Positions 1,700 through 50,510 of a DNA stretch of 64,000 nucleotides are shown piece by piece; position 1 is the stretch's first letter; every line of letters begins with the position of its first letter. The translations under genes and the position numbers were made by a program. The stretch lies in the NCBI GenBank assembly GCA_000091205.1, contig AP006490.2; one strand, written 5' to 3'. Below the pieces are notes generated by a model. The model was not told the DNA's origin. It worked only from the letters and a program-made list of their open reading frames with translations, and did not search any database. The DNA comes from Cyanidioschyzon merolae (lineage: Eukaryota).

Positions 1700-2225
1700 T
1701 TTCGTTGGACATAAAGGCGGCGGTCAATGATACAGACTGCTTCACAACTGTGGAGGGCAAATATGTCTCCCTACCCGCAGACCCGTCTCGCTCTTTTTCA
1801 ACCGGCGTCTTGCTATTGTTTTCAGCTTCTCCTTTTAACCTTCGAGTCTGGGAGACTGTCCGACAAAGTTGTCTCGCGTCAGCTCCTCGGGGCCCGACTT
1901 CAGCAGTATACATCGTCGGCTATTGATGGAGGCTTGAAGACTTAGTCCACGAATTCTATGCGTTCACTGCCTCAGGTGGAACTCATCTATGCAAGGATTG
2001 CTCGAACTCGAGCTCACTTTGCCGCCGCGGCCTCGTTATTGTCCAGTCGGGCAAGCCCTCTTTCACGACTTTCTCTCCCGTACTACTTCGTCGTCGTCAC
2101 TCATTCGTCTTCGCTCGATGGTTGGCAAGAAGAGGATTTTCGTCTTTTTCCTAGTCGCACGCGATGACGGCACTCCAGGATCTCAGACTTCCATTCCGAG
2201 AACATTCCCTTGGGTTTTTTGTTTT
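1700..2225 (-). mobile_element. short (~0.5 kb) 3'-terminal derivative of the Fanzor/TnpB-like element family (sense on minus strand)
   Basis: Translations 1958..2167(+) and 1989..2228(+) parallel antisense frames of the 13.9-14.4 kb copy (LPQVELIYARIARTR / LPLVELINARIARTR). Minus-strand frames resemble the element 3' region (…TPVEKERDGSAGRETYL ~ …RPVKKDREVSACGY). Ends are approximate. Confidence 0.4.
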
Positions 2226-7837: not shown

Positions 7838-8831
7838 ATGCTCCCGAACTGCCAAAACACAACAGTATTCATTTCAACGTTGCCCTGAGAACACAACCTT
7901 TATGAATGAACTTTCGCTGTCGCGCTACGATCATGTTGCCGCGCACACACCTCGCGACGAGTCGATCGCGGTCGAGACGAACCGGAAAAAGTTCCTGCAG
8001 ACGTCAGTGCGGATGTTCTGTGATGGAACGCTGTCTCTGGTCGGCGACCATAGAGATGCATCCGGTATCACCACAGGCTGGTCCCCGGCATTGTATTGTT
8101 TGCATCTTGGCGAAAACTGGATATATTCATTGCCCTTATACCATGAAAAAAATCATCATTAGCGCTCGCGCTAGTCTCGATTCCCAGAAGCCAGCTGGAT
8201 CGGCCCGAGAGACTTCATCGCTTTAACAACATGGAATAATCATCGCAGGCCCGCGCCGTGGATCTCGCACCTAGGATACCTTTGGACGAGTCATCCGTCT
8301 CTTATAGACTGGATGAGGGCTCTGGATGCAGGGAAGGGCGATCTCTATCGTAATTGCTAGCTGTACAAGCGCAGCTACAGGATGATGGTTAGGCTCATCG
8401 ATCTTCCACTATGCGAAAGCGCTATTTGGTGGCACAAGAGACTGCAAATTTATATTTTACGTTCATAGCGTGGCATCAATGCATCTAATCTGCATTTTCT
8501 CTGGCAAGGACAAGGGAGAAAAATTTCGGTTGTACGAGTCACTCAAATAGAACGCAGGCCCGAGCTTGTATGTACGTCGCTGGACCTAGATAAGTGGCAG
8601 CCCATCCAGTGCCATCCTGCCTGAACTTTGCTTCAAATGCCCGCACTTCGAGTGCTGCCCAGTAACCGATATTGCCCCAGGGCAGCAATCCTGATGGATT
8701 AGATCTAATTCAGAGACAGCGCCGAGCGCATCGCAACGCACATCTTGTGGAGGCAGGACGGCCCCAGCATTTGGAGGTGTCCGATCGTATACGACGTGTA
8801 AAATTTTGTCGCTGCGAACGAGCGTAGCAGC

Positions 8832-10112: not shown

Positions 10113-11547
10113 AACCTAATCGTAAAAGAGATGCACGAAACGATTGCAAAGCCACCCAACGGTGCTATGGCACAGCAGCCTCTCCGTGGCACGACCTTCG
10201 GAGCCGGATCACTGAAAGTGACGAGGAACGATCACAAGTGTTACCGTTTGAAACTAAATACGAGCCTCTTGGCTTTCCGGGACCGACCAGAGAAGATGAA
10301 TTCTGACGAAAACCCAGTATTGGAGGAGCGGCGCACTCAGAACAAGACTTTGCAGTGGCATCTGCGATTCGGAGTGCGTATCCATGTGCCCTACATATGA
10401 ACACGAGTGACGCGAGCCATATCTTTTCATAGTTTTGACCAAGGGCGCCGACAAGAGGTTGTAGAGAGAGAAAGAGAACGAGCGCATGGCAGAGCTTTGC
10501 ATAGAAACAGCGGCGGCAAAGGCCAGTCCTCGAACTGGTGGGCCCTGCAGTTGTGCCCGCCCGTGAGCAGCGAGCATTCTAATAGGGGAAGAACGAGGAG
10601 AAACTAACCGCTAACTAGCAACTCGATAACAGTGCTGTTTGACATTGATAGTAAGCGTTGAAAAGGGGAAAGTTTCCGTATCTTCGAAAGCTTACCCTAT
10701 AGGCGGAAGGTCCCGCTAGCCGGACGAGTCTCCAAGGATCGTGCTTTATGCTCCTCCAAGTGGAAGGTGCTGTATTGAAATCTGAGCGGATCGTCCGCAA
10801 CGCAATTCATTCTGGGACTAGGAGCGCGTATGCTGCGTCTGGGCGTCGCCTTGGTCGCAGTGGGCTCTTTGTAGATCGGTTCGCGCTATCGCAGGCTCCC
10901 AGAATAATTATGTACTCCGACGTCGTGTCGGATGAATTACGCCTCGAGCCGACGCCCTCAGTGGAATGGCAATGCCGTCCTGTATCCGTGCAGCATCTGC
11001 TTCAGCGGGATAAGCGCAACGGCGGGTGCTCACGGCAGGCAGTCGTCGCAGGACAGAACGTGCGAGACGACCAGTATATCCGAGAGGAAATATCGGTAAT
11101 GGAACTTGAATGTAAGTGCTTCATGATGCACGCCTTCCCGGAAGCCAGTCTCCGTTCCGAATTCTGGGATCCATCGTAAATGTAAACTTTTTGTCATCTG
11201 CAAAAATCTGCGATTCGGAAGCATCGTCAATAATGGACGCTTCTTTTGCTAGTGTCCTGGGTAGATAGCATCGTCGCTCTCTGAGCATGGCGGTTTTGAT
11301 GTGGTACAGACTGTCGCTATGGCGCTGTGTGCCTGCCTGGATCGCCTCTGTTTCATTCAGCGACAGTACGTCTTTGAGTCCTTGTTCGCGTGCCACTGCG
11401 GGCTTGCGTGAAAGACTGAATATGCGTTTTCCTTATGTTTTCATAGGAACGCGCCCACTGTCTTTTTCTTGAGCGCTTGGAAGACTTGCTACACTTGTTG
11501 CAAAAGAGGGAACACTGTTTCGGCAAACCGGGGAAAACTTGCTGGTT

Positions 11548-13859: not shown

Positions 13860-14440
13860 AAATGCTTTTTCATGGTTTATGGAAGATGAGTGCGAAGTGC
13901 GCTCATTTGAAGAAATAAAAATCCAAGGCAAAGGTATAGAAGTTGAAGCCCACGATCTTGGGGGCCCGCTGGCACCGGATTTGGAGAAACTACGAAAAAA
14001 AATCCTCATCTCGCCGACAATCTTGCGAAGAATAGCGAACGACGAAGAAGAAGAGAGGAGGTAGACGAGAAAAGGTGTTTGCCCTACTGGACAATGACGA
14101 GACTGTAGTGGCATATAGGTCACGAGTTCTAGCAATCCTTGCATTGATGAGTTCAACCAGAGGCAATAAACGTATGGAGTTCGTGAACCGAGACTTCAGC
14201 GTCGCGATCAATATCAGAACATGTGCGTTGCTTTACACGAGTCCCGAGAAGCTGGCCCAATTCCTTCTTCGTGGGACAACTTCTCAGGCTCGAAGTGTAC
14301 AAGGAGAAACTGAGACCGATAGCACTCGACCGGTCAAAAAGGACCGGGAGGTGTCTGCGTGTGGATATTAGTTACCCTACACGGTCGAGACACATTTTTT
14401 GTTTCGTTGGCAGTGAACTGCAGGAATCGAGCGAGTGGTT
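13860..14440 (+). mobile_element. short (~0.58 kb) 3'-terminal derivative of the Fanzor/TnpB-like element family (sense on plus strand), ending about 165 nt upstream of the MT-A70 ATG
   Basis: ORF 14075..14371 encodes …GNKRMEFVNRDFSVAINIRTCA…, a RuvC-III-like motif. This aligns with 33829..34134 (…GKKRMQFVNRNFNAAINIRKCA…) and 47663..47896 (MEFVNRDFNAATNI…). The upstream frame 13687..14064 parallels the zinc-ribbon region. Homology to the 1.7-2.2 kb copy starts at the same internal point. Confidence 0.5.
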
Positions 14441-19501: not shown

Positions 19502-22500
19502 CGCTATGAGCCGGCACTACAGTGAGCGAGAAGCGTCGTTCCTGCCAAGTTTGGGGCGTAGGACACCATACCTCTTCCACCGCATCGTACAAGACGAGAT
19601 TCTTGAGACCGTCGACGCAGTAAAGCCTTCCTCTCACGCGCTGGCGCTCGTCCTGGAGCAGCACTAGAAGTTCACGGTGAAGCAGTGACTCAAGGAACGC
19701 CCTTCCTTCGTTCGCATTGTGGACGCCCATGAGTTTGTAGACGTCTCACCTGTAAAGCGAGATGCAAGAGCCTACGCAGCTACCGCTCTCAAAGTGAAGC
19801 ACATAGCTTGACGGCTAGCGCATTAAGATAACATTAATAGTTTGGATCTCTATTGTATGGGAACTCCGACCAGACGGAAGCTGCACACAAGCAGCAGCAC
19901 ACAGCCTGCCGTTCCTTGCACTCGAAAAAAACCTCATTTGTCTGCAGTGTTCCACGGGGGCGCCAGCCTCCCTCGTGGAGTGCGCACCATGGTGGCGTTC
20001 GCGAAAAACTTAATGTCCTCTTGTCTGAAGCCTGAAATCCCGTGTATTTATGGTGTATCAGTGCAAGTCTGAAAGGACATGCCCGTATACGCAAGCTCTG
20101 CCCGTGGTTAACGAGTGAAACTATGTTGTTTGACGCTTGCGATGGCATTGTTTAGCCTCCCTTTCACGGCCCGATCTAAGCGACTGTATCCCAAGCGCTC
20201 CAGCGAATGCCTCTGCTACGCCTGACAAACCGGGAAACCATGTCGTTAGATTGATCGAGCCTCCACATTCTCGGGTTTCATCATAAACTGGAACCGGTGG
20301 CTCGTAGGGACTCGTGTCAAGGTATTCATCCAGCCTTCACGCCGGGTGTTCATCTCCAAATGGAATTGGTTGAACGGAGGAGCGTCCGTGCTAAAGTCGG
20401 GATCTCCCAGTCGCTTTTATGTAGAGGAGTGAAATGCAGAACACGTATACAAGCACATTCCTCTCGGTCTTATTTATTTTTCCCATTGGTAGTCAACAAA
20501 ATCACTGTTGCGTTTGTACTAGAGAAAGACTGCAGAAAGACCTGATGCCCTCATTGCTGGACATCGAACAAACCGGCTTTACCTCTACAAGCCAGTTATT
20601 TGATGCTAAGCATGTGGACCTACCGCCCTTCTCGTAGTCCTCATTCTGAGCACCGAGCACCAAAAGCAGTACTCATCAGTCGCTATCTACACGACTGTCT
20701 CCTCCTCAATCATTTCCACTCGATTCTTTTTCGAAGAAAGACTACTGAGGAACCCACAAAACGGTGATCACCCTTTTCGTCCATACGAAGGAGACAAAGA
20801 AACACGGACTGATAGCAATAAAATCGCGCTTCTAGAGGAGACCGTCGAGGTTTTTTGCAGTATGCTGTCGCTTTGCGAATGAAATGAGAACGTTCGTTAC
20901 GGTACGGACGGTTGTTCGTCTCATTTGATGCGGCTTCATTCAGGAGAAATGCTAGACCTATTAATAGGTAATCAGAAGAGTGCAAGCGAATGCTATTAAA
21001 GCCGAGAGGAGCGAGAAGGACGATAACAGCTCTAATCGCGATTCAAACATATGGTTGCGTCCAAATTGTCCAATGGACATTATTGTGCAGCACCGTATCC
21101 TTCACTGAAGCACTCATCCAGTCTTTCTTCATACATTCTTGTGTCCTGCTATCAGACAGCATCGATTCCCTTGTCTTAAAAGAGGGCAATTGTACGCAGG
21201 CAGGATTCGCACTCAGCTGCTCTTCGTCCCAGCATATTATCCCTGGTTGTGTCATGTCGTCAGCATTAACCACCTTGTCAAACGACACTTCTACCCTACA
21301 GCTGCAGTAGACGAGTCAATCGCAACTGTTGCACCATTCTTCGAAGAGTCTTTGAAGGAGAATTTGTGTCCAGTGTTCATTTGTCCTGAACTGATTTGTG
21401 GCTCCTCTGCTTGTCGCCGGGAAAGAGCCGAAAGGCTCGCAAAGTTTCGATATCTTTCTCGCGATGTGGTAAGTGACGAAGATATTCCTGAAGATTGATA
21501 AGCTACAGCGTTGGACATGATGGAGTGCGCAATGCCCGTGCTCATACTCCTTCCAAAAGAGCATAGAACGTGTGAAGAAAATCTATTCTCTACGATTTTC
21601 ATCGATGAGTTCAGGTTGACACACGCATTACGAGCGCGGATGCACGCTGAAACTGATACGGAAGTCGACAGTGCAACAGGAGCCGATACACGAGCTGTTG
21701 TATGGTAAACTGACCAACAGCGAGATTACGAAGCCATCAAAGGCAAGAGACTTGATATTACGTGATTTCAGTAGTAATTATGCGCACGAGCACCTTCTGC
21801 ACAGAGACTTGAAAGCTCTGATCAAAATCCGGAAATGGTCCCGGCCTCCAGAGCGCCCAGTTCCTTTATGCCAAGCGAAATTTCGAGCAATTGTTTTTTG
21901 CACAGTGTGGTCACGAAGTTGAAACGAGAATGATTTGCCATTATAAGAGTCAATTGCAAAGAGAGAGGACGGTGGATTCTCGCACGGAGTGAGGTACTAG
22001 AATGGTACGGTCCACATTTCAAGGCTGGAGCGCTATTTATCCAACGCAAATGGCGTCGCTGGGCACTTAGCAGACGATAATGGTGTTCATTTGTTCGATA
22101 TTACTGAGCATGCATATAGCTATCCCTGATTTGGCAAATTTTAATTACACTCATCGATTCTGCAGCCGAAACTCTACGACATCTGGCCTTCCCAAAGCGC
22201 GCGCGTCAGTCATATTATCGAAAAGACGCTGGTCTGCTACAATTTGGCTTGCTTGTTCTGCTCCCCGATCGAGACTCTTCGTAAGAGTTTGCTCGCAAAT
22301 ATCAACCGCTCTGGCTGTATCGAACGTCGCTTTGGTACAGGCGTCTATGATGTTGATGTCCGCAAGGCCCTGCTAAGCTAAAACCAAACGTTTCACGACG
22401 ATCGAGGAAAGCTTTTCAAACGAAACGCTGCATATTCGTGGGAGAGTTTGTATCGAGATTAGGCGTATTGCACCGATCGAGCATCGAGAAATAGACGACG

Positions 22501-24337: not shown

Positions 24338-24422
24338 GCTGAGAACCCGCTGCCGACAGCGAACGCCTTTCAAAAGAAAAACGTTGCTGCCGGCGGTGGA
24401 CAGGAGCAGCGAGGAAGCCGCC

Positions 24423-25527
24423 CTAGACAAGACGTCTCCAACTTACGTACAGACGCCTCCCAGTCTCTTTCGACCGGCCACCCACTACTGGTTCCAACTT
24501 TTTCTCATATAATCCTACCTTAAGCGGTTGTCCAACAAAATATTCTCTTGTCAACTCCGGAGGTCTTCTTTCCATCACCGCACATTTCCTTATATTGATA
24601 GCGGCGTTAAAGTTTCGATTCACAAACTGCATGCGTTTCTTGCCATTGGTAGTTGGACTCACTAGTGCAAGTAGTCCACGAACTTTCGTCCTCCTTTCCA
24701 CTTGCTCTTTCGTCAGCGCTCCGAACATTTTTATATCCTCAGGGGTCTGCTGGCACTTTTCATCTCCAATCTCTGACGTTTACACCCCAATTGGTGGTGT
24801 GTATTGGTCGTTCGGAACTCATCTATCGGTATCGTGACGAAACGGTATGCGCACTCCTTGTACGCTCGTGTCGTTGGAGATGGCGCACACCTTTTTTTCG
24901 ACGCCCAGCGCCTTGCTCCGTATGCCACTACGAGCCTCTGACTCTTGTGCTCCTTCAGGGCGCTCAACTGATTGAAAAAGTTCGCGAGCGCGCGCCGCTT
25001 CCCACAATACAGGTTCACACGCAGAGGAGCCCACCGGCGATTTGTATACTCTTTCCACAGCGCCTCCCAATGAGCAGCGCGAACTTCCATGAATTTCAGA
25101 AAAGTCTGAAAGTCCGCTCCGCGGCTCGTCACCTCGCTCATAGCTTCCAGGTGGTCCTTCATTCCTTCGTTCCACATCTCGATTTTCTTCCTCGCATTCA
25201 TCATACCGGATTCTCGATAGTATCTCGCTCTCGAGAGCTTTAAAAGACGCATGTCTTTCTGACTTAAGTTGCCTTCAATGCCTCTTCCGCGCGCTTGGGT
25301 GCTGCGATGGCTATAATATTCGTGTTTCTGGGGTCCGCGCCAACGACAACGTCGTTCTCATGTACTTCTCGCGTCGCATGACCCGCCTCCTTCTCATCTT
25401 CATGCTTCGCCGCATCAACGACAAAGTCGGTCTCCTGCACCTCCTGCGTCGCAGGTTCCGCATCCTTCTTTTCTTCATGCTTCGCCGAGTGCGAAGCCGA
25501 AGACGGAACTGGACGATCCGCCTTCAA
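24423..25527 (-). pseudogene. C-terminal catalytic half of TnpB/Fanzor-like protein in copy A (RuvC-I, RuvC-II region, degenerate zinc ribbon, RuvC-III), split across three frames
   Basis: frames change at 25264/25252 and 24731/24728; RuvC-III Asp position is Asn (NRNF) in this copy. Confidence 0.6.
25369..25520. repeat. ~75-nt imperfect tandem duplication inside copy A (mirror in copy B at about 33037-33188)
   Basis: duplicated peptide AKHEEKKDAEPATQEVQETDFVVDA / AKHEDEKEAGHATREVHENDVVVGA immediately N-terminal to the RuvC-I motif; copy C has a single unit. Confidence 0.5.
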
Positions 25528-27996
25528 GAGCCGATAGTGTGCACATACGGGTACTCCATCGCTTTCGGTTATCCCCGTGAATATCTTTTTCTTGCCCTTA
25601 TTGAGACGTTTGAAGTCGGATATAGTTTTCCAAGAAGTCTAGAGGTTTCCACCAATAGATGCCTCCCCGCTTACATCTAACTCCGAACTGATCTCCAGCA
25701 TTACGTTGTGAATGTCGCTGGCGTCGATTGTCACAAAATGTGACTTGACGCCGCCGAGAGCAACGACGCTGAAGCGCCTCTCCGGAAACACAGCCATCCG
25801 TTTCGCCGACTCTCTATTTTCCCCCTACTCATCTGCAGTTCGGCCTTGCGTTCGAATTCTCGGTTCAGGAACACGAAATAGCGCAGGATGAGGGGATAAT
25901 ATCTTTTTCCATATCTGATACCTATTCTGCTGGGCTGACCAGCCCCAGGACCGCACGGTGCTCTTGAGCAGCCGCAGGGATCACAGAAGCTGCATTCGTG
26001 CTCTTGGTTGATGTCTTCTTGTCGACAAATTCGATCTCCTGTCCATTCTTACTATCGTTCGTGATGCTGGCAATGATGGTCCATCTCGCCCAGTGTGAGA
26101 CGCCCAAGTAGAGAGCAAAATTGGAGCGTTTCATGAAGCGTTCCAGGTTCATGGCCATATGGGTCTTTAGGTTCGTGAGGGACTTGATCGCCCCGTATTC
26201 GTAAATACGCGAGTCACCCCTCTATCGAGTACCGTTGAAGCGGTAGTTGGAGTGATGTTCGTGGAGGGCATGTAATCGCTCATTTCTCATCGACATTTAC
26301 CCTGTGCCAAATATTAGGTCACCAATAAAGGTCTTGTTGAAAAACTCTTCCGGAATCTCGAATATTTTGATGTGCGTGACGTCGCGATACATCTCCCTCG
26401 CCATATACATCAGTCCCAAAGAGGCGTAATTAACACTCCTGGAGTACGACTCCACACGGTTTCTGACGGCCTTTTGCGTCTCTTGCTCGTAGGGGTCCTT
26501 GATATGTCCAAGAAGACAGGCGTTCACTACCATCTCGTCGTACTCTCATCTTTCATGCAGCATGTGACATCGGACCTCCTGCATCTGCTTCTTCGTTTTC
26601 TCGTGTTCCTCTTTGCTCGGCGCGGTTTTTCTTTTTTTCCCGGCGGCCGGCAACATCGGCCCTTCAGGATCCCGACTTGCATGTGCGCTGCTTTCCTTTG
26701 GCGTTTTTATTTCGTCAAGATGATCGCACGTCTTCTTGCTCTTAGATGGGGCCTTCTCGGAGGGAGGGGGACTTTCGCAAGAAAAGCGACATGTGCCCCC
26801 ATGTTTTAGCGTGTGCAGAACGCTCAGCGATTTACCCAGCGCAGTGTTCATCAAAATTCTCGATAGAAAACGCTCCTTAGATGCGGCCGAACCACGGCGT
26901 GTACGAAGTAATGAGAAGCAACCCTATCCCTACAGATTCGGCAAAGACTCGAACGCAAGGGGAACGGTAAAACATCACGTTGCCCGACAGAGGGATGTTT
27001 CCAGACGTCAGGGGAAGAGTCTGCAATGATTCGACGCAGTGGTCGGTACCGTTGTATGACCGCTATCTACGAGCGAAGCTGAGGCCACCAGATGAATCCA
27101 CTCCACCCGTACCAGATGATATTCTCGTTCTCTTTGAGTTCGATCATACACACTATGGGCGCCCTGCTCCGCGAATACCCATGTACGCTCCGACAGTATC
27201 GTCCGAAGCAAGTCTCATTGACTAGAAAAACAAATCGATGCCCCTGCGCTTCAAACCGATCGCGACGATCCGAAGACGCTGTTGTTGCGATGTCGTTGGA
27301 CGATGGCCGAGCGTGAAATTGGTATTCGTTTTTCCGACTGTATCGCAGTGATTTCAGGACCACACGAACAAGCTGGTGAGTAAGAGAGACACCCGTTGTG
27401 GCTTCTATCATCGCTTTTGCCTTCCACGCGGTGATGAATCGGTTGTTTTTTACCACGGACCCCAAGCACGCTTTGTGAATATCGGTTTTTTGATACGGAG
27501 CGGGTGTAGTGGTTTCTTTCGGTGTTCCTCAACCAGCTGAGTACTCTCGAAAGACTGACCTGAAGGAGGAATACATTACTTGCACGCTTCAGTCAAGGAT
27601 ATATATCCTACATGCAAATCGCCTATGTTCTATACGGTACATTGCAGAGTGATATCGATCTCCTCCTATACACTGCAGCAGGGGTGAAACGTAATTGAGT
27701 TGAAAGAGCGCAGCTGGGAACATCGACTGTGTCGCAGTTCGCGCGCCCTGTACCGCCATTGAAATCATCGCGATCGCCGCGCTAGCGCGGGACACCATCG
27801 ATCCGATCCGCATGGCAGCTCGCGGGACGTCATCGATCCAACGGAAAACTATTTTTCGACGGACTGCTCGCATCATGAGGGTCTTTGAGAGCCTCAAATA
27901 TTAGGCTGAAGTGAAGTTTCGCTAACAATTTGGGTCCTTGCTGCTTTAAGTTGAGGTGTTTTGGTTTAGTGAGCACCTCATCTTGGGACGAATTGG

Positions 27997-30300
27997 ATGA
28001 TCCCCCGAAAACTTCCAACCAGCGAAACTCGATCGAAGCCTCCGAGCTTCGGCCATAGAGCTGGACAACGTCACCGCACGCAGCTTGTGGAACGTCAGGG
28101 AGGTCAGGAGTGGAAACACGATCATTTGGGAGAGTCCACAGAAGGCCGGTCGGTTTGTTCCTGTGAAGCTTGCCGGACACTGAGCCTAGCCGGTTTCCCG
28201 AACAGCAGCAACAGCAGCAACAGCAGCAACAGCAGCAGCAGCAGCCTCTCTGAGCTCGAGGACCGTCCACAGTGTATTGGTGGCTACTCTAGTTCTAGTG
28301 GTGGGGCCGCAGAAGGAGTCGATCAATACGTATGGGAACTGCATGAGGGTTTCAATATGGGGACACCAACCCAAACAATACAGCGTCCTGCTGAGTGTCC
28401 TAGCTTCGGTTACGGTGCTTTTCGTTCCAGACGAGCAGACTCTGGAAGCGAGCCCCTTGCTAATGAACCACTCGAAACCATGCGGGACCTCTCCATTCAT
28501 GATGCCGCGTCTCATGATACGCAAAAGCTGCCATCGATGAAGCACCGCGCTGGAGACGTGAGCTCAGTTACTGTTCCGTCAACGAATGCTAAATTTGCGG
28601 TAGCAGGGCATTCGGATGCACCGAAAATTTTCAGTTCTCCTGAGGCGGAAGCACGCCTACTGCCCTGTAGCTCATACGCAGACTCGGCTACAACGGGCTC
28701 TTCTTCATTGCATGAAGGCTTGGTTCAGCTTGATGTTGTCGATTATCGAATGCGCATAGTCTCGAAACAAATTTCGAGCAGCATGCCTGTCTACGAAACT
28801 AGGCAACTCTCAACGTCCCGCGCGAGTTCTCGGAACACGGCGGTGCTTGGACGTCTCTGGTCAGTCGCGTCACTTGGAGTCAACAGACCTAATGAGGACC
28901 GTTGGCACGTAGAACGCCAGCGTCTGATATGCGATTTCCAGTCATACGCGCCTTTCAAGCTTTCGCAAGCCAGTCTAAGATCTGAGGCGGGCACAAGCTC
29001 GGTCGCCGCTCTCAAAAGCGTGAAATGCAGCGGATCGGCTGTGGGTTTCACACGACCAGCAACTCCGCCTGGGAGTCACGATGTGGCAGAGTGTGAAGTC
29101 GCTGACTGCGACAGCGGTTTCGAATCTGATGACTCGTTTACGGTGGGCTTGTTTGATGGACACGAAGGAGCCACGTGCTGCGAGCTAGTTGGCGAACTGC
29201 TTCTAGAAACGATTCGAGACCGATGCACTAAGAATGGAAAATATACGACTATGCTCCAGGAGCTTGGAATTGAAGGCTTTGCAAGATGTCTGATAGAGAC
29301 GTTTGAATTTGTCGACAAGAAGATCCTGGAGCTCCTCTGGGAACATCTAGAGCGAAGTGGCGACGGACATTTTGCAATAACAGGAGCCTGTTGCATAACA
29401 GCAACGCTGATGAATGGTGGAAGGGATCTCTTCGTTGCCTCGCTAGGAGACTGTGAGGCCTATTTGGGCCGTCGATGTTGCGCGGCTGCGGAGCTCCCGC
29501 ATCCTCAAGAAGGAGCGAATAAGCGTATGGCTCGAAAAAATTTCGAAGCGATTCGGCTGTGTCGCTCACATAATCTTCGAATCAGCGAGAATTCGAAAGC
29601 TCTCATGGAGCGGTTTCCCAACGATCCCTCCGTAGTGCAGAAAATAGGCAATAATTTTTTCGTCAAAGGCAAGCTGCAGGTATCGCACGCCTTTGGAAAT
29701 GGATACCTGAAAGAGCAAAGATTCAACGAGCGACTCTACCCTATTTTTAGGGCGAAGTCACCTTACTGTGGAGGATACGTGTCCGCAACTCCGCATGTTG
29801 AGCATGTGTCCTTGATGGATCGGGACGAATTTCTGATTTTAGGAACGGATGGATTCTGGGAGAACGCTGAACCAGAGGTAGTCGTCGAGCTTTTGGGTCA
29901 CTTTTTTCACGATCGGGAGATTCTGGAGGGGAATCTAGACCAGATCTCAATAGATCCAAGAAGGGCAAGCGAGCTCTTGATGCAGTACGTGTGGCTTCGC
30001 CTCCACGACAGTATAGAACCCGCGAGCTTGCGTACAGCGGGCCAGACTGGTGGCAAAAGCAGTGGAAGCTGTGCTGCTGAGCCGCGCCCTCAGCTTCGTG
30101 ACGACTGCTCAGTTCTGGTTTTATTCCTCCGTCCAACGGAGATCGGGGATGCAGAAGAAGCCATATCATACACAGGCAATATGGATTGTACAGATTTTTG
30201 TGAGCAACTAGATGGTGATACCAAGGAGCGCATTCAACGTCTGCGAGCATCGATTTCCGAATGGATGCGCACATATGGCGAGCATTCCGATGAAATATGA
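27997..30300 (+). CDS. protein phosphatase 2C (PPM family), 767 aa; catalytic domain in C-terminal half, long low-complexity N-terminal region
   Basis: ATG at 27997; PP2C motifs …GLFDGHEGATCCE… and …LGTDGFWEN…; (SNS)n tract encoded by an (AACAGCAGC)n repeat. Confidence 0.85.
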   Translation: MIPRKLPTSETRSKPPSFGHRAGQRHRTQLVERQGGQEWKHDHLGESTEGRSVCSCEACRTLSLAGFPNSSNSSNSSNSSSSSLSELEDRPQCIGGYSSSSGGAAEGVDQYVWELHEGFNMGTPTQTIQRPAECPSFGYGAFRSRRADSGSEPLANEPLETMRDLSIHDAASHDTQKLPSMKHRAGDVSSVTVPSTNAKFAVAGHSDAPKIFSSPEAEARLLPCSSYADSATTGSSSLHEGLVQLDVVDYRMRIVSKQISSSMPVYETRQLSTSRASSRNTAVLGRLWSVASLGVNRPNEDRWHVERQRLICDFQSYAPFKLSQASLRSEAGTSSVAALKSVKCSGSAVGFTRPATPPGSHDVAECEVADCDSGFESDDSFTVGLFDGHEGATCCELVGELLLETIRDRCTKNGKYTTMLQELGIEGFARCLIETFEFVDKKILELLWEHLERSGDGHFAITGACCITATLMNGGRDLFVASLGDCEAYLGRRCCAAAELPHPQEGANKRMARKNFEAIRLCRSHNLRISENSKALMERFPNDPSVVQKIGNNFFVKGKLQVSHAFGNGYLKEQRFNERLYPIFRAKSPYCGGYVSATPHVEHVSLMDRDEFLILGTDGFWENAEPEVVVELLGHFFHDREILEGNLDQISIDPRRASELLMQYVWLRLHDSIEPASLRTAGQTGGKSSGSCAAEPRPQLRDDCSVLVLFLRPTEIGDAEEAISYTGNMDCTDFCEQLDGDTKERIQRLRASISEWMRTYGEHSDEI
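28201..28246 (+). repeat. trinucleotide-type microsatellite (AACAGCAGC)n/(AGC)n inside PP2C coding sequence
   Basis: aacagcagcaacagcagcaacagcagcaacagcagcagcagcagc; produces poly-Cys/poly-Leu shadow ORFs on the opposite strand. Confidence 0.8.
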
Positions 30301-30856
30301 ACATCAGCACAAACCTGAAGATGCAGCCAGTCGTGCATATTGTGAAGCGGTCTTCTCGTTCCTAGTTGTTACTGCAGGAGATTGCTTGTCCGGCTGATGC
30401 TGGGTCTCACGTATGTTAAGGGCGAGAGCAATCAAAGTGTAACCTCCGTCGAATGACAAAGGGAGCGCAACGATTGCACCTCTGTGGAACGCGGAACTCA
30501 CTGCTCTCAACGCTTCGCAGAACGACGTGGGCCATCAGCTCGGTGCGCATGTTTGCTTTGCAGCTCTCGAGAATCAAATGAACTGCTGGCGTAGCGCAAA
30601 ATAGTGCCCAATTCGCGCGCTAGTGCTTGCGTAAATTTACAAATCGTCGGGATAGAGAATTTCTCAAGTCGGCGTCAGAACAGCCCGTTCTGCCACAATC
30701 CTACACGGTGCAGCTCCACATAAAACCCTTTTCCCAACCGATCCACGAATCCGACAAGACTTTTGCTCACTTGTGGCGCAATTCTGCGAAACATGGACTG
30801 AGCAAAGGAGAAGAAGGAGCCTGTCGCTTATTCTCGTGTACAACTAACGTCTTTCG

Positions 30857-33800
30857 AATCAATTACGTTTCACCCCTGCTGCAGTGTATAGGAGGAGATC
30901 GATATCACTCTGCAATGTACCGTATAGAACATAGGCGATTTGCATGTAGGATATATATCCTTGACTGAAGCGTGCAAGTAATGTATTCCTCCTTCAGGTC
31001 AGTCTTTCGAGAGTACTCAGCTGGTTGAGGAACACCGAAAGAAACCACTACACCCGCTCCGTATCAAAAAACCGATATTCACAAAGCGTGCTTGGGGTCC
31101 GTGGTAAAAAACAACCGATTCATCACCGCGTGGAAGGCAAAAGCGATGATAGAAGCCACAACGGGTGTCTCTCTTACTCACCAGCTTGTTCGTGTGGTCC
31201 TGAAATCACTGCGATACAGTCGGAAAAACGAATACCAATTTCACGCTCGGCCATCGTCCAACGACATCGCAACAACAGCGTCTTCGGATCGTCGCGATCG
31301 GTTTGAAGCGCAGGGGCATCGATTTGTTTTTCTAGTCAATGAGACTTGCTTCGGACGATACTGTCGGAGCGTACATGGGTATTCGCGGAGCAGGGCGCCC
31401 ATAGTGTGTATGATCGAACTCAAAGAGAACGAGAATATCATCTGGTACGGGTGGAGTGGATTCATCTGGTGGCCTCAGCTTCGCTCGTAGATAGCGGTCA
31501 TACAACGGTACCGACCACTGCGTCGAATCATTGCAGACTCTTCCCCTGACGTCTGGAAACATCCCTCTGTCGGGCAACGTGATGTTTTACCGTTCCCCTT
31601 GCGTTCGAGTCTTTGCCGAATCTGTAGGGATAGGGTTGCTTCTCATTACTTCGTACACGCCGTGGTTCGGCCGCATCTAAGGAGCGTTTTCTATCGAGAA
31701 TTTTGATGAACACTGCGCTGGGTAAATCGCTGAGCGTTCTGCACACGCTAAAACATGGGGGCACATGTCGCTTTTCTTGCGAAAGTCCCCCTCCCTCCGA
31801 GAAGGCCCCATCTAAGAGCAAGAAGACGTGCGATCATCTTGACGAAATAAAAACGCCAAAGGAAAGCAGCGCACATGCAAGTCGGGATCCTGAAGGGCCG
31901 ATGTTGCCGGCCGCCGGGAAAAAAAGAAAAACCGCGCCGAGCAAAGAGGAACACGAGAAAACGAAGAAGCAGATGCAGGAGGTCCGATGTCACATGCTGC
32001 ATGAAAGATGAGAGTACGACGAGATGGTAGTGAACGCCTGTCTTCTTGGACATATCAAGGACCCCTACGAGCAAGAGACGCAAAAGGCCGTCAGAAACCG
32101 TGTGGAGTCGTACTCCAGGAGTGTTAATTACGCCTCTTTGGGACTGATGTATATGGCGAGGGAGATGTATCGCGACGTCACGCACATCAAAATATTCGAG
32201 ATTCCGGAAGAGTTTTTCAACAAGACCTTTATTGGTGACCTAATATTTGGCACAGGGTAAATGTCGATGAGAAATGAGCGATTACATGCCCTCCACGAAC
32301 ATCACTCCAACTACCGCTTCAACGGTACTCGATAGAGGGGTGACTCGCGTATTTGCGAATACGGGGCGATCAAGTCCCTCACGAACCTAAAGACCCATAT
32401 GGCCATGAACCTGGAACGCTTCATGAAACGCTCCAATTTTGCTCTCTACTTGGGCGTCTCACACTGGGCGAGATGGACCATCATTGCCAGCATCACGAAC
32501 GATAGTAAGAATGGACAGGAGATCGAATTTGTCGACAAGAAGACATCAACCAAGAGCACGAATGCAGCTTCTGTGATCCCTGCGGCTGCTCAAGAGCACC
32601 GTGCGGTCCTGGGGCTGGTCAGCCCAGCAGAATAGGTATCAGATATGGAAAAAGATATTATCCCCTCATCCTGCGCTATTTCGTGTTCCTGAACCGAGAA
32701 TTCGAACGCAAGGCCGAACTGCAGATGAGTAGGGGGAAAATAGAGAGTCGGCGAAACGGATGGCTGTGTTTCCGGAGAGGCGCTTCAGCGTCGTTGCTCT
32801 CGGCGGCGTCAAGTCACATTTTGTGACAATCGACGCCAGCGACATTCACAACGTAATGCTGGAGATCAGTTCGGAGTTAGATGTAAGCGGGGAGGCATCT
32901 ATTGGTGGAAACCTCTAGACTTCTTGGAAAACTATATCCGACTTCAAACGTCTCAATAAGGGCAAGAAAAAGATATTCACGGGGATAACCGAAAGCGATG
33001 GAGTACCCGTATGTGCACACTATCGGCTCTTGAAGGCGGATCGTCCAGTTCCGTCTTCGGCTTCGCACTCGGCGAAGCATGAAGAAAAGAAGGATGCGGA
33101 ACCTGCGACGCAGGAGGTGCAGGAGACCGACTTTGTCGTTGATGCGGCGAAGCATGAAGATGAGAAGGAGGCGGGTCATGCGACGCGAGAAGTACATGAG
33201 AACGACGTTGTCGTTGGCGCGGACCCCAGAAACACGAATATTATAGCCATCGCAGCACCCAAGCGCGCGGAAGAGGCATTGAAGGCAACTTAAGTCAGAA
33301 AGACATGCGTCTTTTAAAGCTCTCGAGAGCGAGATACTATCGAGAATCCGGTATGATGAATGCGAGGAAGAAAATCGAGATGTGGAACGAAGGAATGAAG
33401 GACCACCTGGAAGCTATGAGCGAGGTGACGAGCCGCGGAGCGGACTTTCAGACTTTTCTGAAATTCATGGAAGTTCGCGCTGCTCATTGGGAGGCGCTGT
33501 GGAAAGAGTATACAAATCGCCGGTGGGCTCCTCTGCGTGTGAACCTGTATTGTGGGAAGCGGCGCGCGCTCGCGAACTTTTTCAATCAGTTGAGCGCCCT
33601 GAAGGAGCACAAGAGTCAGAGGCTCGTAGTGGCATACGGAGCAAGGCGCTGGGCGTCGAAAAAAAGGTGTGCGCCATCTCCAACGACACGAGCGTACAAG
33701 GAGTGCGCATACCGTTTCGTCACGATACCGATAGATGAGTTCCGAACGACCAATACACACCACCAATTGGGGTGTAAACGTCAGAGATTGGAGATGAAAA

Positions 33801-34202
33801 GTGCCAGCAGACCCCTGAGGATATAAAAATGTTCGGAGCGCTGACGAAAGAGCAAGTGGAAAGGAGGACGAAAGTTCGTGGACTACTTGCACTAGTGAGT
33901 CCAACTACCAATGGCAAGAAACGCATGCAGTTTGTGAATCGAAACTTTAACGCCGCTATCAATATAAGGAAATGTGCGGTGATGGAAAGAAGACCTCCGG
34001 AGTTGACAAGAGAATATTTTGTTGGACAACCGCTTAAGGTAGGATTATATGAGAAAAAGTTGGAACCAGTAGTGGGTGGCCGGTCGAAAGAGACTGGGAG
34101 GCGTCTGCACGTTAGTTGGAGACGTCTTGTCTAGGGCGGCTTCCTCGCTACTACTGTCCACCGCCGGCAGCAACGTTTTTCTTTTGAAAGGCGTTCGCTG
34201 TC
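30857..34202 (+). mobile_element. Fanzor/TnpB-like element, full-length copy B (mirror of copy A), sense on plus strand
   Basis: exact reverse-complement of copy A apart from about 4 substitutions and a 6-nt gacagc duplication near 34196-34207; ORF pieces 31092..31490, 31703..32011, 32024..32260, 32399..32635, 33030..33293, 33305..33826, 33829..34134. Confidence 0.65.
33030..34134 (+). pseudogene. C-terminal catalytic half of TnpB/Fanzor-like protein in copy B (mirror of 24423..25527)
   Basis: identical translation to copy A except one residue (…RRLHVSW… vs …RRLYVSW…). Confidence 0.6.
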
Positions 34203-34386
34203 GCTGTCGTGGCCTGCACAGAGCGAGCGCTCAGGATATTCTTCTAGCAACTAAGGTGTCCTGGGTTGAAAGCCTGGTATCCTGCGCAGTCAGAAGTACT
34301 TTTACTGGCACGTGATGATTGGAAGCAGTGGAGCTGTGCTCCGGGGCTTCCAGGTTTCGACTTCGTGATTCAGAGCCAGCTTCAAA

Positions 34387-47594: not shown

Positions 47595-50510
47595 TCGACA
47601 CAAGCGGTCGTGCCCGCGAGCAGCAGCGTACCCCAGTGTGTGAGGGCGAGGCAACGAAGGTTTCAACGGAGCGAAAACGTTTCGCGACTGCAGAGTACAC
47701 CAATACCGACGTACAGACGCCTCCCCGTCTTTTTCGACCGGCTGGCTGCCATCGGCTTCAGCTTTTCCTTGTACATTTCGACCCGGAGAGGTTCCCCCAC
47801 AAAATTGGCTCTTGTAAACTCCAGAGGTCTCCTCTCCGGCACCGCACATCTCCATATATTTGTAGCGGCGTTAAAGTCTCGATTCACGAACTCCATGCGT
47901 TTCTCTCCGTTGTGGCTGTACTCAATAATGTGAGTAGTCCTCGAACTTGAGCCCTCCGCTCCATTTCCTGTTCTGTCAGCTCTCCGTGCTTTTCTATATC
48001 CTCAGCGCTCCGCCGGCACTTTTCCATCTCGACCTGCTGAAATTTACACCCCAGCTCGTGGTGTATACATGACGTTCGAAACTCATCTACCAGTATTGTG
48101 ACAAAACTGTGTGCGCACTCCTTGTACGCTCGTGTCGATGAAGCTGGTATACTCCTTTTTTGGGAACCGAGCGCCCTGAACCGTATGCTATGATGAGCCT
48201 TGGACTCTTGGTCTCTTTGAGAGCGCTCAACTGATTGAAGAGATTGGAGAATGCATGTCGCTTCCCACGGTACAATTTCATACGCTGACGAGCTCAGCGG
48301 GGCTTTGTGTACTCTTTCCCCAGCTCCTCGTGATGAGCAGCTCGTGTTTCCATGAACTCTAGAAAAGCTTGAAAGTTCGCTCCGCGGCTCTTCACATTAC
48401 TGATCACTTCCAGGTGCTCCATCGCTCCTGCGTTCCGTTTCTCACTTTTTTCCTTGCATTCATTATTCCCCATTCTCGGTAGTATCTCGCTCTCGAGAAC
48501 ATTAAAAGACGCGTATCGTTTCAGCATAAGTTGCCTTTGGTACCATTTTTGCTACATTTGGGAGCAGGGATGGTCATGATGTTCGTGTTCCCAGGGTAAA
48601 GGACTACGACAACGTCGTTCCCCTGCAGCTCCTGCGTCGCAAGATGCGCCTCCTTTTCTTGATGCCTCGCCGAGGACGAAGCTGTAGACACAATAGGACG
48701 ATCTGCCTTCAAGCGCCGATAGTGTCCATACATGTATACTCCATCGCTTCCGATCATCCACGTGAACACCTTTTTCTTGCTCATTTTGCGACGTTTGAAA
48801 TCGAAGATATATCTACAAAATGACTCACGGTTTTCGCCAGTGAACTCCTCCCTGCTTACATTGAACTCCGAGCTGATCTCCCTCATGATACCGTCATGGG
48901 CTGCGAAGTCGATTGTCACAAAGTGCTACGTGATCTCGCATATCGGAACGACATGGGAGCGCTTCCCCAGAAGCGCAGCCTTCCGTTTCTCCGACTTTTT
49001 TCCCACAACCGGCTCCATTTCGGCCTTGCGTTCGAGTTCTCGGTTCACGAACGCGATGCAGCCCAGGATGAGAGGATAAAATCTATTTTCATCTTTGTTT
49101 CATATCTGATACCTATTCTACTGGGTTGACCAGCCCCAAAACTGCACGTTGCTCTTGAATAGTCGCACGGATCACAGAGGCGTCATTCTTTCCTATGTGT
49201 GATGTGTTCTCGTCGATGAATTCGATCTTCTTTTCATTCTTACTATCGTTAGCGATGCCATCGACGAGGGTCCATCTTGCCCTGCGAGATACGCCCGGGT
49301 AGAGTGCAAGTGTGAAGCGTACCATGAAGCGTTTGAGGTTCACGATCATGTAGTTCCTCAGGTCCGTGAGGTACTTGATCTCCCCGTAGGAGAAAATATC
49401 CGCGTCACCCCTGTGTCTAGTACCGTCGAAGCGGAATACGGGGTGAATTTCGTGGAGTGCACGTTCTTGCTCATTTCTCCTGGAGGTTTCCCCAATGCCA
49501 AATATCAGTTGACCAATAAAGGTTTTGCTGAGAAACCCTTCCGGGACATCGACTGTTTTGATGTGCGGCACGTAGCGATACATCTCCCTCGCCATATGCA
49601 TCAGTCCCAAAGAAGTGTTACGAACACTGTTCGCGAAGGAAGCGACACGGTTTCTGATGGCCCTTGCATCTCTTTTCTTGTACAGATCCTTTATACGGCG
49701 TTGAAGACAGGCTTTCACCAGCATCTCGTCGCACAGTTCTCTTTCGTGTAGCGTTTGACGTTGGGCCTCCTGCTTCTGCTTCTTTGTGTTCTCGTGTTCC
49801 GCTTTGCTCGGCACAGTTTTTCGTTTTTTTTCCGGCGGCCAACGACACCGTCCCTTTAGGATATTCTACTTCCATGTCTATATCCATGAGCGAAAGTGAG
49901 GCCGCCGAATAAATCCTCTGCAGATAGAACGGATGATGTCCTCTTTCTCATCGAGCTCGATCATACGCACAACGGACTCCCTCTCCGCAAATAATCACAC
50001 ACGCTCCGACCGGTTCGCCCGAAGCAAGTCTCACTGACAGAAAGGAATCGACTTCCCTGTGCTTCAGACCGATCGCAACGTTCCAGGAAAGCTGTTATTG
50101 CGAATTCGATGGAAGACAGCCGTGGGTGAACTAGGGCTCTGTTTTTGTGACAGTATTCGATTGTTTTCAGGACCACACGAACAAACTGGTGAGAAATGAA
50201 GGCGCCCGTTATGGCTTCTATCGTCGCTTTTGCCTTTCATACGATGAAAAATCGGTGGTTTCCTACCACGGACCGAAAGCACGCTTTGAGAAAGCCGGCT
50301 CTATGGCGCAAAGCGAATACATTTGTTTCTTTCAGTGCTCCCCACCCAAATGAGTACTGTGGTACGACTGGCCAGAAGGGGAAAGGCAATCTTTCTGGCA
50401 CTGTCCAGTGAGGAGTACATGCTACAGGCAATTCGTCTACGATCTATAAGGTACGTTGCATCGTGATTTCGACTACATAACATACACCGCAGCGAGGATG
50501 AAATAATATT
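47595..50510 (-). mobile_element. Fanzor/TnpB-like element, full-length diverged copy C (about 70% nt identity to copies A/B), sense on minus strand, interrupted
   Basis: Collinear ORF pieces 50301..50525, 50064..50282, 49113..49814 (233 aa, spanning three pieces of copy A), 48521..48919 (RuvC-I region, VVVVLYPGNTNIMTIPAP), 48294..48527, 48087..48281, 47663..47896 (MEFVNRDFNAATNI). Terminal nucleotide homology to copy A at both ends was aligned by hand. Confidence 0.6.
47663..48919 (-). pseudogene. C-terminal catalytic half of TnpB/Fanzor-like protein in copy C; RuvC-I Asp replaced (GADP to VLYP), private nonsense codon after …KEYTKPR
   Basis: same frame-shift position between RuvC-I piece and next piece as in copies A/B; stop where copies A/B encode Trp. 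Confidence 0.55.

Follow-up and report, generated by a model that had tools for sequence, protein, structure and literature searches.

The stretch of Cyanidioschyzon merolae DNA analyzed here (64,000 nucleotides [nt] of contig AP006490.2, GenBank assembly GCA_000091205.1; referred to as the window) contains a large inverted repeat, each arm of which carries a decayed composite element with a Tc1/mariner transposase relic and a pseudogene of the Fanzor1 family of TnpB-like, RuvC-type nucleases. The right arm (30846 to 34203, plus strand) is a complete copy of the element, and the left arm (24354 to 27707, minus strand) is the same element inverted, 99.79% identical and bearing every lesion of the right arm. 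Exact comparison of 24354 to 27707 with 30850 to 34203 gave an inverted repeat of 3,354 nt with seven mismatches, six of which lie close to the arm termini (within 9 nt and 96 nt), and the 3.1-kb spacer between them (27708 to 30849) holds a single host open reading frame (ORF). An earlier note, made from the sequence letters, had placed a TnpB/Fanzor-like gene of approximately 1 kb at 33030 to 34134; that interval is only the C-terminal half of a gene that spans approximately 31870 to 34134. We conclude with high confidence that the arms are two inverted, near-identical dead copies of the CMe-1 Fanzor1 DNA transposon in C. merolae 10D.

Organization and decay of the elements

The Fanzor1 pseudogene was delimited by global alignment to the published CMe-1 consensus ORF and occupies 31870 to 34134 on the plus strand of the right arm, with its mirror at 24423 to 26687 on the minus strand of the left arm. 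Approximately the first 980 nt of each arm (30850 to 31828 in the right arm) lie outside the CMe-1A consensus, and there a decayed, nonfunctional transposase gene of the Tc1/mariner (DDE_3) type, interrupted by stops and a frameshift, was found at 30915 to 31809 on the plus strand and at 26748 to 27642 on the minus strand. The relic was detected by tblastn with the intact transposase of a distantly related locus (L003; PF13358, expectation value [E] of 1.3e-25), residues 102 to 396 of which align to 30915 to 31809 with an E of 1.9e-23 in a match that covers the counterpart of the AYSPWFNPIE motif. A third copy, of the same CMe-1 subfamily, lies 13.5 kb downstream of the arms (47655 to 50503, minus strand) and comprises a Fanzor1 pseudogene (47655 to 49882) and a partial transposase relic (49919 to 50477, minus strand) that retains the N-terminal half and has a deletion of approximately 380 nt. 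We conclude that the third copy is an older dead copy.

The motif peptides from which a nuclease had been recognized are real and were all found at or near the positions given for them: VVVGADPRNTNIIAIAAP at 33207 to 33260, LVVAYGARRW at 33623 to 33652, VTIPIDEFRTTNTHHQLGC at 33719 to 33775, and KRMQFVNRNFNAAINI at 33919 to 33966. They are spread over the three forward frames, and each has its mirror image on the minus strand of the left arm. RuvC-I reads GADPR (33216 to 33230), which has the Fanzor-like D-P that had been proposed and keeps the catalytic Asp, with Arg in place of the consensus Gly. The canonical RuvC-II strand (LVVAYGARRW) has Gly in place of the TnpB catalytic Glu, and an alternative RuvC-II Glu is kept in IDEFR (33731 to 33745), which is followed by [TS][TS]. 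Throughout the family, Gly at the canonical RuvC-II position (VVAYGA[GR]RW) is paired with an alternative Glu ([VI]DEFRT[ST]) approximately 33 to 36 residues downstream, and the same rearranged site, in which Gly or Pro stands in for the RuvC-II Glu and an alternative Glu lies downstream, has been reported for all Fanzors (Jiang 2023, PMC10530073). The spacing from the RuvC-I Asp to [TS][TS], given as 125 to 275 residues by Bao and Jurka, is 175 residues in the consensus (D431 to T606-S607). The arms retain GADPR and IDEFRTT, and the third copy lacks the RuvC-I Asp (VLYPG). RuvC-III had been thought to carry D-x-N-A-A but reads N-R-N-F-N-A-A in the arms (33937 to 33957), so that the RD pair is absent there (NRNFNAAINI) and present in the family consensus and the third copy (NRDFNAA). 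We conclude that the change of the RuvC-III Asp to Asn in the arms is a decay lesion.

Two further features lie upstream of the catalytic motifs. A basic stretch near the N terminus (AAGKKRKTAPSKEEHEKTKK, 31910 to 31969, plus strand) corresponds to residues 15 to 34 of the CMe-1 consensus; the lysine-rich stretch of the earlier note is therefore real and belongs to the same decayed gene, although it falls outside the interval 33030 to 34134. Basic sequence of this kind (KKRK...KTKK) is also present in the consensus and in relatives, and the N terminus is disordered in the structural model of the intact relative P0041 (see below). A nuclear localization signal (NLS) at the N terminus has been reported for approximately 60% of Fanzors (PMC10530073), and by analogy the arm stretch fits a putative NLS. 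Just upstream of RuvC-I, a 75-nt (25-amino-acid [aa]) unit is duplicated in tandem and in frame (33070 to 33219, plus strand; 25335 to 25484 in the left arm). Each arm has two such units, the consensus and the third copy have one each, and the near-intact relative P0001 has four; the unit is a variable tandem repeat in a linker that is presumably disordered.

Comparison with the consensus ORF indicated five frameshifting deletions in the arms (at 31885, 10 nt at 32658, and at 32731, 33275, and 33796), five premature stops (codons 48, 131, 156, 256, and 354), and loss of the start codon. Both arms carry identical indels, stops, and motif states. The third copy has 12 frameshifting indels, three stops, and a change of the RuvC-I Asp to Tyr. 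Because frameshifts and stops interrupt both genes and a catalytic Asp is lost in each Fanzor copy, we conclude that all three Fanzor copies in the window are pseudogenes and encode no nuclease. The stop at codon 256 (Lys to TAG; 32635 to 32637 and 49113 to 49115) is common to the arms and the third copy, which are approximately 75% identical, and thus suggests that the subfamily arose by the spread of a master copy that was disabled beforehand and mobilized in trans.

The wider family was sampled as 48 distinct near-full-length copies, made up of the three in the window and copies from 71 related metagenome loci and from L001. Only one of the 48 copies, L001 (positions 6001 to 8259; Joint Genome Institute [JGI] metagenome 3300050362, contig Ga0504780_000149), retains all three RuvC motifs in an ORF of 650 codons or more, and it is a natural candidate for a still active CMe-1 Fanzor. 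Few of the 71 loci have the transposase module (L014 and L060/L062, plus other arrangements), and the window copies are therefore a minor, transposase-bearing CMe-1 subfamily. In 46 related copies, all codon positions of the first 300 nt or so of the Fanzor ORF (consensus 906 to 1205, window approximately 31870 to 32170) are conserved at approximately 0.89, and the third positions there are better conserved than elsewhere in the gene (0.82 to 0.87), which could reflect constraint on the nucleotides themselves at the 5′ end or, alternatively, the way in which subfamilies were sampled.

Assignment to CMe-1 and to Fanzor1

The family to which the arms belong was described by Bao and Jurka in 2013 (Mob DNA 4:12, PMC3627910), who reported CMe-1A in C. 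merolae as approximately 150 copies, some of them intact and each approximately 80% identical to a consensus of approximately 3 kb. No terminal inverted repeats (TIRs) were reported, target-site duplications could not be determined, and the class of the transposable element (TE) was given as unknown. The supplementary files of that paper contain a Repbase-style CMe-1A consensus of 3,169 bp and a CMe-1 protein of 734 aa encoded by a single exon, and CMe-1 is part of their Fanzor1 alignment and falls inside Fanzor1 in the 2013 tree. In blastn comparisons, the arms matched positions 871 to 3169 of the consensus at 80.6 to 87.3% nucleotide identity, and the third copy matched positions 905 to 3092 at 79.6%. 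In global alignment to the consensus ORF, the arm gene was 84.4% identical in nucleotides and 70.5% identical in amino acids in the repaired frame, and the gene of the third copy was 80.2% and 63.8% identical, respectively. Consistent with these values, tblastn with the CMe-1 protein gave five collinear high-scoring segment pairs in the arm (55 to 81% identity; frames 2, 1, 3, 2, and 1), far above chance, and both protein termini match CMe-1 (PAAGKKRKT[VA]PS... at the N terminus and ...GRRLHVSWRR[FL]V at the C terminus).

The host is confirmed, as six host ORFs of the window are exactly the C. merolae 10D proteins BAM79727, BAM79729, BAM79736, BAM79737, BAM79742, and BAM79743. On the match to the CMe-1 consensus together with the identity of the host, the window copies belong to an already catalogued family. 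The earlier note had surmised a multicopy family, which the third window copy and the approximately 150 published copies (PMC3627910) bear out, and had thought the family worth recording, which had already been done in 2013. We found no other discussion of CMe-1 beyond the 2013 paper in the searchable literature. We conclude that family, consensus sequence, and copy number in C. merolae have all been known since 2013 and that the window copies are dead.

Relationship to Fanzor1 was also examined independently of the published tree. Among 5.8 billion proteins, 42 relatives were found, nearly all of them known only from JGI metagenomes. The best (P0001, 752 aa) was 56% identical over 90% of the query, and further full-length relatives of approximately 700 aa were 32 to 36% identical. 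Intact relatives show G[AN]DPG, VVAYGAGR, VDEFRT[ST], and NRDFNAAINIR, and many carry the Pfam domain PF26935 (DUF8286). An exhaustive hidden Markov model search retrieved 3,180 cluster representatives at an E of 1e-3 or less, 418 of them at 1e-30 or less, and 61 diverse full-length members were aligned (alignment A3). Within the alignment, the RuvC-I Asp and the Glu, Arg, and Asn of the later motifs, including the Glu of IDEFR, are invariant, and the RuvC-III Asp and remaining positions of RDxNAAxNI are conserved in at least 90% of members. Moreover, 19 of the 61 members individually matched PF07282 (Cas12f1-like TNB domain, formerly OrfB_Zn_ribbon), with a best E of 2.1e-8.

Profile and structure comparisons with the A3 alignment both led to Fanzor1. 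When searched against all PDB sequences, the A3 profile gave exactly three matches, all of them Fanzor1 proteins: Parasitella parasitica Fz1 (PpFz1; 7.3e-24), Spizellomyces punctatus Fz1 (SpuFz1; 4.3e-17), and Guillardia theta Fz1 (GtFz1; 2.5e-14). The alignments span the WED/REC regions and the DPG motif and, in the Parasitella and Spizellomyces proteins, also DEFRTS and NRD, such that the Glu of IDEFR is aligned to the DEFRTS and DEYKTS motifs of PpFz and SpuFz. A first AlphaFold run on the shallow alignment of 42 sequences gave a predicted local distance difference test score (pLDDT) of 54 and was unusable, and modeling was redone with the A3 alignment. The resulting AlphaFold2 model of the intact relative P0041 had a pLDDT of 87.6 and a predicted template modeling (TM) score of 0.85, and the top seven Foldseek matches in the PDB were SpuFz, PpFz, and GtFz structures (E of 1.8e-17 to 3.4e-15, TM score up to 0.72), with Cas12o, Cas12f, and Fanzor2 at least 12 orders of magnitude behind. 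Thus, the structural check against SpuFz1 that the earlier note had suggested came out in favor of Fanzor1 for a relative of the window protein (E of approximately 1e-17), and its reading of the arms as a Fanzor-type RuvC nuclease relative holds on the CMe-1 match, the A3 profile, and the P0041 model alike. On the profile and structure evidence, we conclude that Pfam DUF8286 (PF26935; here P0001 to P0191) is a Fanzor1 clade with thousands of representatives, many of which have no recognizable zinc ribbon.

Element ends and history of the inverted pair

The left end of the right arm carries a terminal repeat (AACGTCTTTCGAATCAATTACGTT, 30846 to 30869, plus strand) that is identical at 18 of 24 positions to the reverse complement of 34172 to 34195. 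The 24-bp TIR is imperfect and weak, yet it is anchored at both termini, and only 0.2% of shuffled sequences scored as high. In the distant relatives L002 to L005, clean 30-bp TIRs spaced 3.6 kb apart enclose transposase and Fanzor genes that are both intact and lie on one strand. A resemblance of the left terminus of the arm to consensus positions 800 to 818 was marginal (score of 23 versus 17 ± 2.3 for shuffled sequence) and was not used.

The omega-RNA of Fanzor and TnpB derives from the right end of the element (PMC10432273). When 62 right ends were aligned, family homology stopped just after ...TTCGAA(A/C)GGCGTT, at 34195 in the right arm and 24362 in the left arm; some 10 weakly similar G/T-rich nt follow, and near-identity between the arms ends at 34203. 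The tail of approximately 60 to 70 nt after the stop codon (mirrored at 24362 to 24411 in the left arm) holds two features: a conserved unpaired block (CGCTACTACTGTCCAC, 34146 to 34161, plus strand; family consensus CGCCACTACTGTACAC, with most columns at least 90% conserved across the 48 copies) and, as the right terminal repeat, a predicted 10-bp sense-strand hairpin, AACGTTTTTC-TTTT-GAAAGGCGTT (34172 to 34195, plus strand). The last 30 nt fold into a hairpin of 8 to 11 bp in approximately 40 of the 48 copies (median z of −2.0; approximately −3 for the window copies). Folding is strand biased, at −10.0 kcal/mol for the sense versus −5.3 kcal/mol for the antisense strand, the sense strand being the more stable in 46 of 48 copies (p = 4e-9), and G·U accounts for 20% of hairpin pairs. 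In subfamily B (22 copies), 87.6% of alignment cells are paired, versus 33 to 55% when the partner strand is slid, and four pairs show double-sided changes with a covariation score reached by 2 of 500 shuffles, which is modest covariation. In subfamily A (12 copies, including those of the window), 92.5% of cells are paired and there is no covariation.

An omega-RNA scaffold overlapping the 3′ end of the ORF was considered and is unsupported by codon-position conservation. Thus, of the 3′ scaffold envisaged in the earlier note, a short conserved sense-strand hairpin was found, but neither an extended scaffold nor constraint over the end of the ORF. Judged from sequence conservation and predicted folding, a short structured right-end element is supported and is a candidate omega-RNA, and the hairpin in particular is a candidate for the 3′ stem of such an RNA or else for a transposon-end or terminator structure. 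We conclude that placement of an omega-RNA at the right end is weakly supported.

The history of the pair was addressed with a related strain (L080) whose XPF gene is 99.37% identical and which has a dead right-arm copy at the orthologous site upstream of XPF. Over the 3,030 nt shared with L080, 17 positions separate the right arm from it and 14 the left arm, with 5 differences between the arms themselves; L080 carries the left-arm allele at 34108, 34113, 34150, and 34153. Divergence between the arms is therefore 0.17 to 0.21%, versus 0.56% between strains at the orthologous arm. At first the dead arm seemed to be conserved in excess between the strains, but the flanking chromosome, compared over 13.3 kb, diverges by 0.46%, and with that baseline the excess vanished. 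Four changes clustered at the outer end of the right arm look, from their sequence, like a short conversion patch. We infer that the arms are either a duplication younger than the split of the strains or have been homogenized by gene conversion; today they are only a 3.35-kb inverted repeat around a host gene.

That gene is the 767-aa ORF at 27997 to 30300 (plus strand), which is not part of the element and which we take, by reading alone, to be PP2C-like. Its exact sequence is in no record that was found, for which a different annotated start is the probable reason. Elsewhere in the window, tblastn detected short CMe-1 relics of the Fanzor C terminus or element 3′ end at 1772 to 1942 (minus strand), 14099 to 14363 (plus strand), and 21620 to 21883 (plus strand); a relic of the 5′ region (consensus 800 to 968) lies at 2137 to 2310 (minus strand), and a further transposase relic lies at 21214 to 21381 (plus strand). 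The bias of the short relics toward the 3′ end could be explained by detection or by the mode of truncation. Sequences like TE-N2_CMe, that is, like the 5′ 635 bp of the CMe-1A consensus, occur at 10588 to 11198 (minus strand, 78%) and at 59117 to 59295 (plus strand, 83%). The latter is inside the 5′ part of the ORF of CYME_CMH044C (BAM79743; 59056 to 60408), annotated as a hypothetical protein, and this ORF may be partly transposon derived.

Weighing the evidence and comparison with known systems

Several results weigh against reading the arms as remains of a Fanzor1 transposon with an omega-RNA at its right end. The repaired proteins of the arm (740 aa) and the third copy (718 aa) matched none of the TnpB/Fanzor Pfam families at E values up to 10, the best PF07282 score of the window protein, P0001, and P0041 being an E of 0.17 to 0.23. 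Taken literally, the negative result of the repaired protein with OrfB_IS605 (PF01385) and OrfB_Zn_ribbon (PF07282) is what the earlier note had said would refute its assignment. A phmmer search of all PDB sequences with the repaired protein returned nothing relevant, and a family profile of 11 sequences gave no match in the PDB. The protein that was modeled, P0041, is a 35%-identical relative and not the window protein itself, and no demonstration of nuclease activity for any CMe-1 protein was found in the searchable literature. The canonical C4 zinc finger of Fanzor and TnpB is not conserved in the CMe-1 clade: the C..C zinc-ribbon entry that had been proposed in the arms is THHQLGC, with a single Cys, and only one or two Cys are left in the zinc-finger region (THHELGC...KC), which is nonetheless modeled with good confidence in P0041. 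At the element ends, no TA target-site duplication flanks either arm, whether the termini are set at 30846/34195 or at 30850/34203; insertion of Tc1/mariner elements normally leaves one. RNAalifold predicted no pairs and no family-wide consensus over the 48 right ends. The covariance analysis of the 3′ ends that the earlier note had called for yielded modest covariation in subfamily B and none in subfamily A. Finally, there is no excess of third-codon conservation near the 3′ end of the ORF (0.82 to 0.85), conservation of the entire 3′ tail (0.83) does not exceed that of third codon positions, and the window has no Rfam match at gathering thresholds.

Some of these results are qualified by others. 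Single-sequence Pfam and PDB searches are blind to the relationship, for which a deep profile, structure prediction, or the published consensus is needed, and since the Pfam TnpB models miss the clade, reading of motifs was here more sensitive than routine domain annotation. The RNAalifold result arises because two subfamilies fold the hairpin in different registers. With respect to the zinc finger, the TNB domain looks homologous in the CMe-1 clade, with metal ligands that are not conserved there.

Might the frame breaks instead be introns or sites of programmed recoding, such that the arms still encode a functional Fanzor1? Introns are common in the Fanzor genes of other eukaryotes (PMC10530073), and one stop (K256 to TAG) is common to the arms and the third copy. 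The breaks, however, are deletions of 1 nt and 10 nt relative to an uninterrupted consensus ORF rather than GT..AG insertions, the five in-frame stops and the lost start codon in the arms argue against a functional Fanzor1, and catalytic residues are changed (in the arms the RuvC-III Asp is Asn, and in the third copy the RuvC-I Asp is Tyr). Moreover, the published CMe-1 gene is a single exon. Genes of C. merolae are nearly all without introns, consistent with the exact matches of the host ORFs, and we regard a still functional gene as extremely improbable. Equally little credence can be given to the idea that the RuvC-like motifs belong to a prokaryotic-type TnpB, to Fanzor2, or to an unrelated protein with a RuvC/RNase H fold. 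It would account for Pfam labeling the clade only as DUF8286 and for the TnpB models missing the window protein, but the A3 profile matches Fanzor1 chains only, Foldseek places Fanzor1 at least 12 orders of magnitude ahead of Cas12o, Cas12f, and Fanzor2, and the Fanzor1 alignment of Bao and Jurka includes CMe-1. In addition, no TnpA or serine recombinase gene is nearby, the neighboring gene is a DDE_3 transposase, and the host is a eukaryote.

The inverted repeat itself admits other readings. An assembly artifact, in which one copy was placed twice, is suggested by the 99.79% identity and by related-strain metagenome assemblies that break in the arm at 34079. It is very unlikely, as the arms differ at seven sites, six of them in the terminal 9 nt and 96 nt, each arm has different unique flanks, and the window agrees exactly with six annotated reference proteins; the seven differences together with the dead copy at the orthologous site in L080 indicate two real copies. 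The metagenome contigs in question, from related strains (L077 to L079), start at window position 34079, approximately 125 nt inside the outer end of the right arm, which is consistent with the repeat being present in those strains too and collapsing their assembly. Also of very small probability is co-option of the arms by the host, for example as an invertible switch or as a regulatory structure around the enclosed gene. The arm pair does bracket precisely one host gene, and the arms are closer to each other (0.17 to 0.21%) than the strains are at the orthologous arm (0.56%). Nevertheless, that 0.56% equals the local average (0.46% over 13.3 kb) and thus does not point to purifying selection, the likeness of the arms is accounted for by recent duplication or gene conversion, and no evidence of an inversion polymorphism was obtained. 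We therefore retain the interpretation of the arms as two dead, inverted copies of the CMe-1 Fanzor1 transposon.

From the family, host, domain and catalytic-motif architecture, pseudogene state, transposase relic, and terminal structures described above, and by analogy with characterized Fanzor1 and TnpB systems for the mechanism, an intact element would carry two genes, one for a DDE transposase of the Tc1/mariner type and, after it, one for a Fanzor1 of approximately 734 aa. The transposase would move the whole unit. The basic N terminus of an intact Fanzor1 would bring the protein into the nucleus, and the protein would bind an omega-RNA from the right end, with the flanking DNA just past that end supplying the guide. 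Matching DNA next to a target-adjacent motif would then be cut by the rearranged RuvC site (Asp, alternative Glu, Asp), and cleavage would probably aid persistence or spread of the transposon after excision. A more specific proposal, which we offer tentatively and think rather unlikely in its entirety, is that the CMe-1 clade is a Tc1/mariner-borne Fanzor1 without a canonical zinc finger, that it uses a short right-end omega-RNA of approximately 60 to 85 nt, that it may be active in wild Cyanidioschyzon, and that the window copies are relics of an autonomous CMe-1A ancestor. Possible activity in wild populations is raised by the survival of one intact copy (L001). If the omega-RNA is indeed short, it would consist of the unpaired block and the terminal hairpin adjoining the guide.

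As a discovery the locus carries little weight, since the family was published in 2013 and the window copies are dead. What is added is the link to Tc1/mariner with a weak TIR, the recognition of DUF8286 as a Fanzor1 clade, and the conserved right-end hairpin. The transposase and the weak TIR tie the formerly unclassified CMe-1 element to Tc1/mariner and suggest an origin for the family, and the hairpin and the single intact relative are a starting point for work on a Fanzor1 that lacks a zinc finger and on its guide RNA.

Compared with the CMe-1A consensus, the arms share the basic N terminus, the RuvC motifs, the C terminus, and the right end to within 2 to 10 nt. Consensus positions 1 to 870, which include the 635-bp TE-N2_CMe part, are missing from the window copies; in their place stand a decayed transposase gene of the Tc1/mariner (DDE_3) type and the weak TIR of 24 bp. 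The arms also have an extra 75-nt tandem unit. Mariner-borne Fanzor1 elements were already known: in PUl-1 of Pythium ultimum (Bao and Jurka 2013; PMC3627910) and in Fanzor1c (Jiang et al. 2023; PMC10530073), a Tc1/mariner transposase gene lies upstream of Fanzor1. The arms and L002 to L005 share that arrangement, with both genes on the same strand and bounded by TIRs. PUl-1 has 24-bp TIRs, TA target-site duplications, and a canonical zinc finger (PMC3627910), whereas the window element has a degenerate TIR, no TA duplication, and two dead genes.

The solved Fanzor1 nucleases SpuFz1 (8GKH), PpFz1 (9CF0), and GtFz1 (9CER) are homologous to the family over the WED/REC, RuvC, and NUC regions and share with it a RuvC-I of the DPG type, a RuvC-III of the NRD type, and the alternative Glu within D-E-[FY]-x-T-[ST], although sequence identity is only 12 to 15%. 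The NUC domain of SpuFz1 has a CxxC...CxxxxC zinc finger, whereas the CMe-1 clade keeps at most two Cys, and at SpuFz1 loci there are inverted repeats of 30 nt but a transposase gene is absent (PMC10432273). Prokaryotic TnpB (for example, that of ISDra2, IS200/IS605) shares with the family the RuvC fold, an RDxNAAxNI-type RuvC-III, and homology in the TNB domain (PF07282, in 19 of 61 members). TnpB has the canonical RuvC-II Glu, in contrast to the family, which has Gly there and an alternative Glu downstream, and only the family protein is extended by a large N-terminal region that includes a basic, NLS-like stretch. Finally, the partner of TnpB is a Y1 TnpA transposase, whereas the partner in the window is the relic of a DDE transposase.

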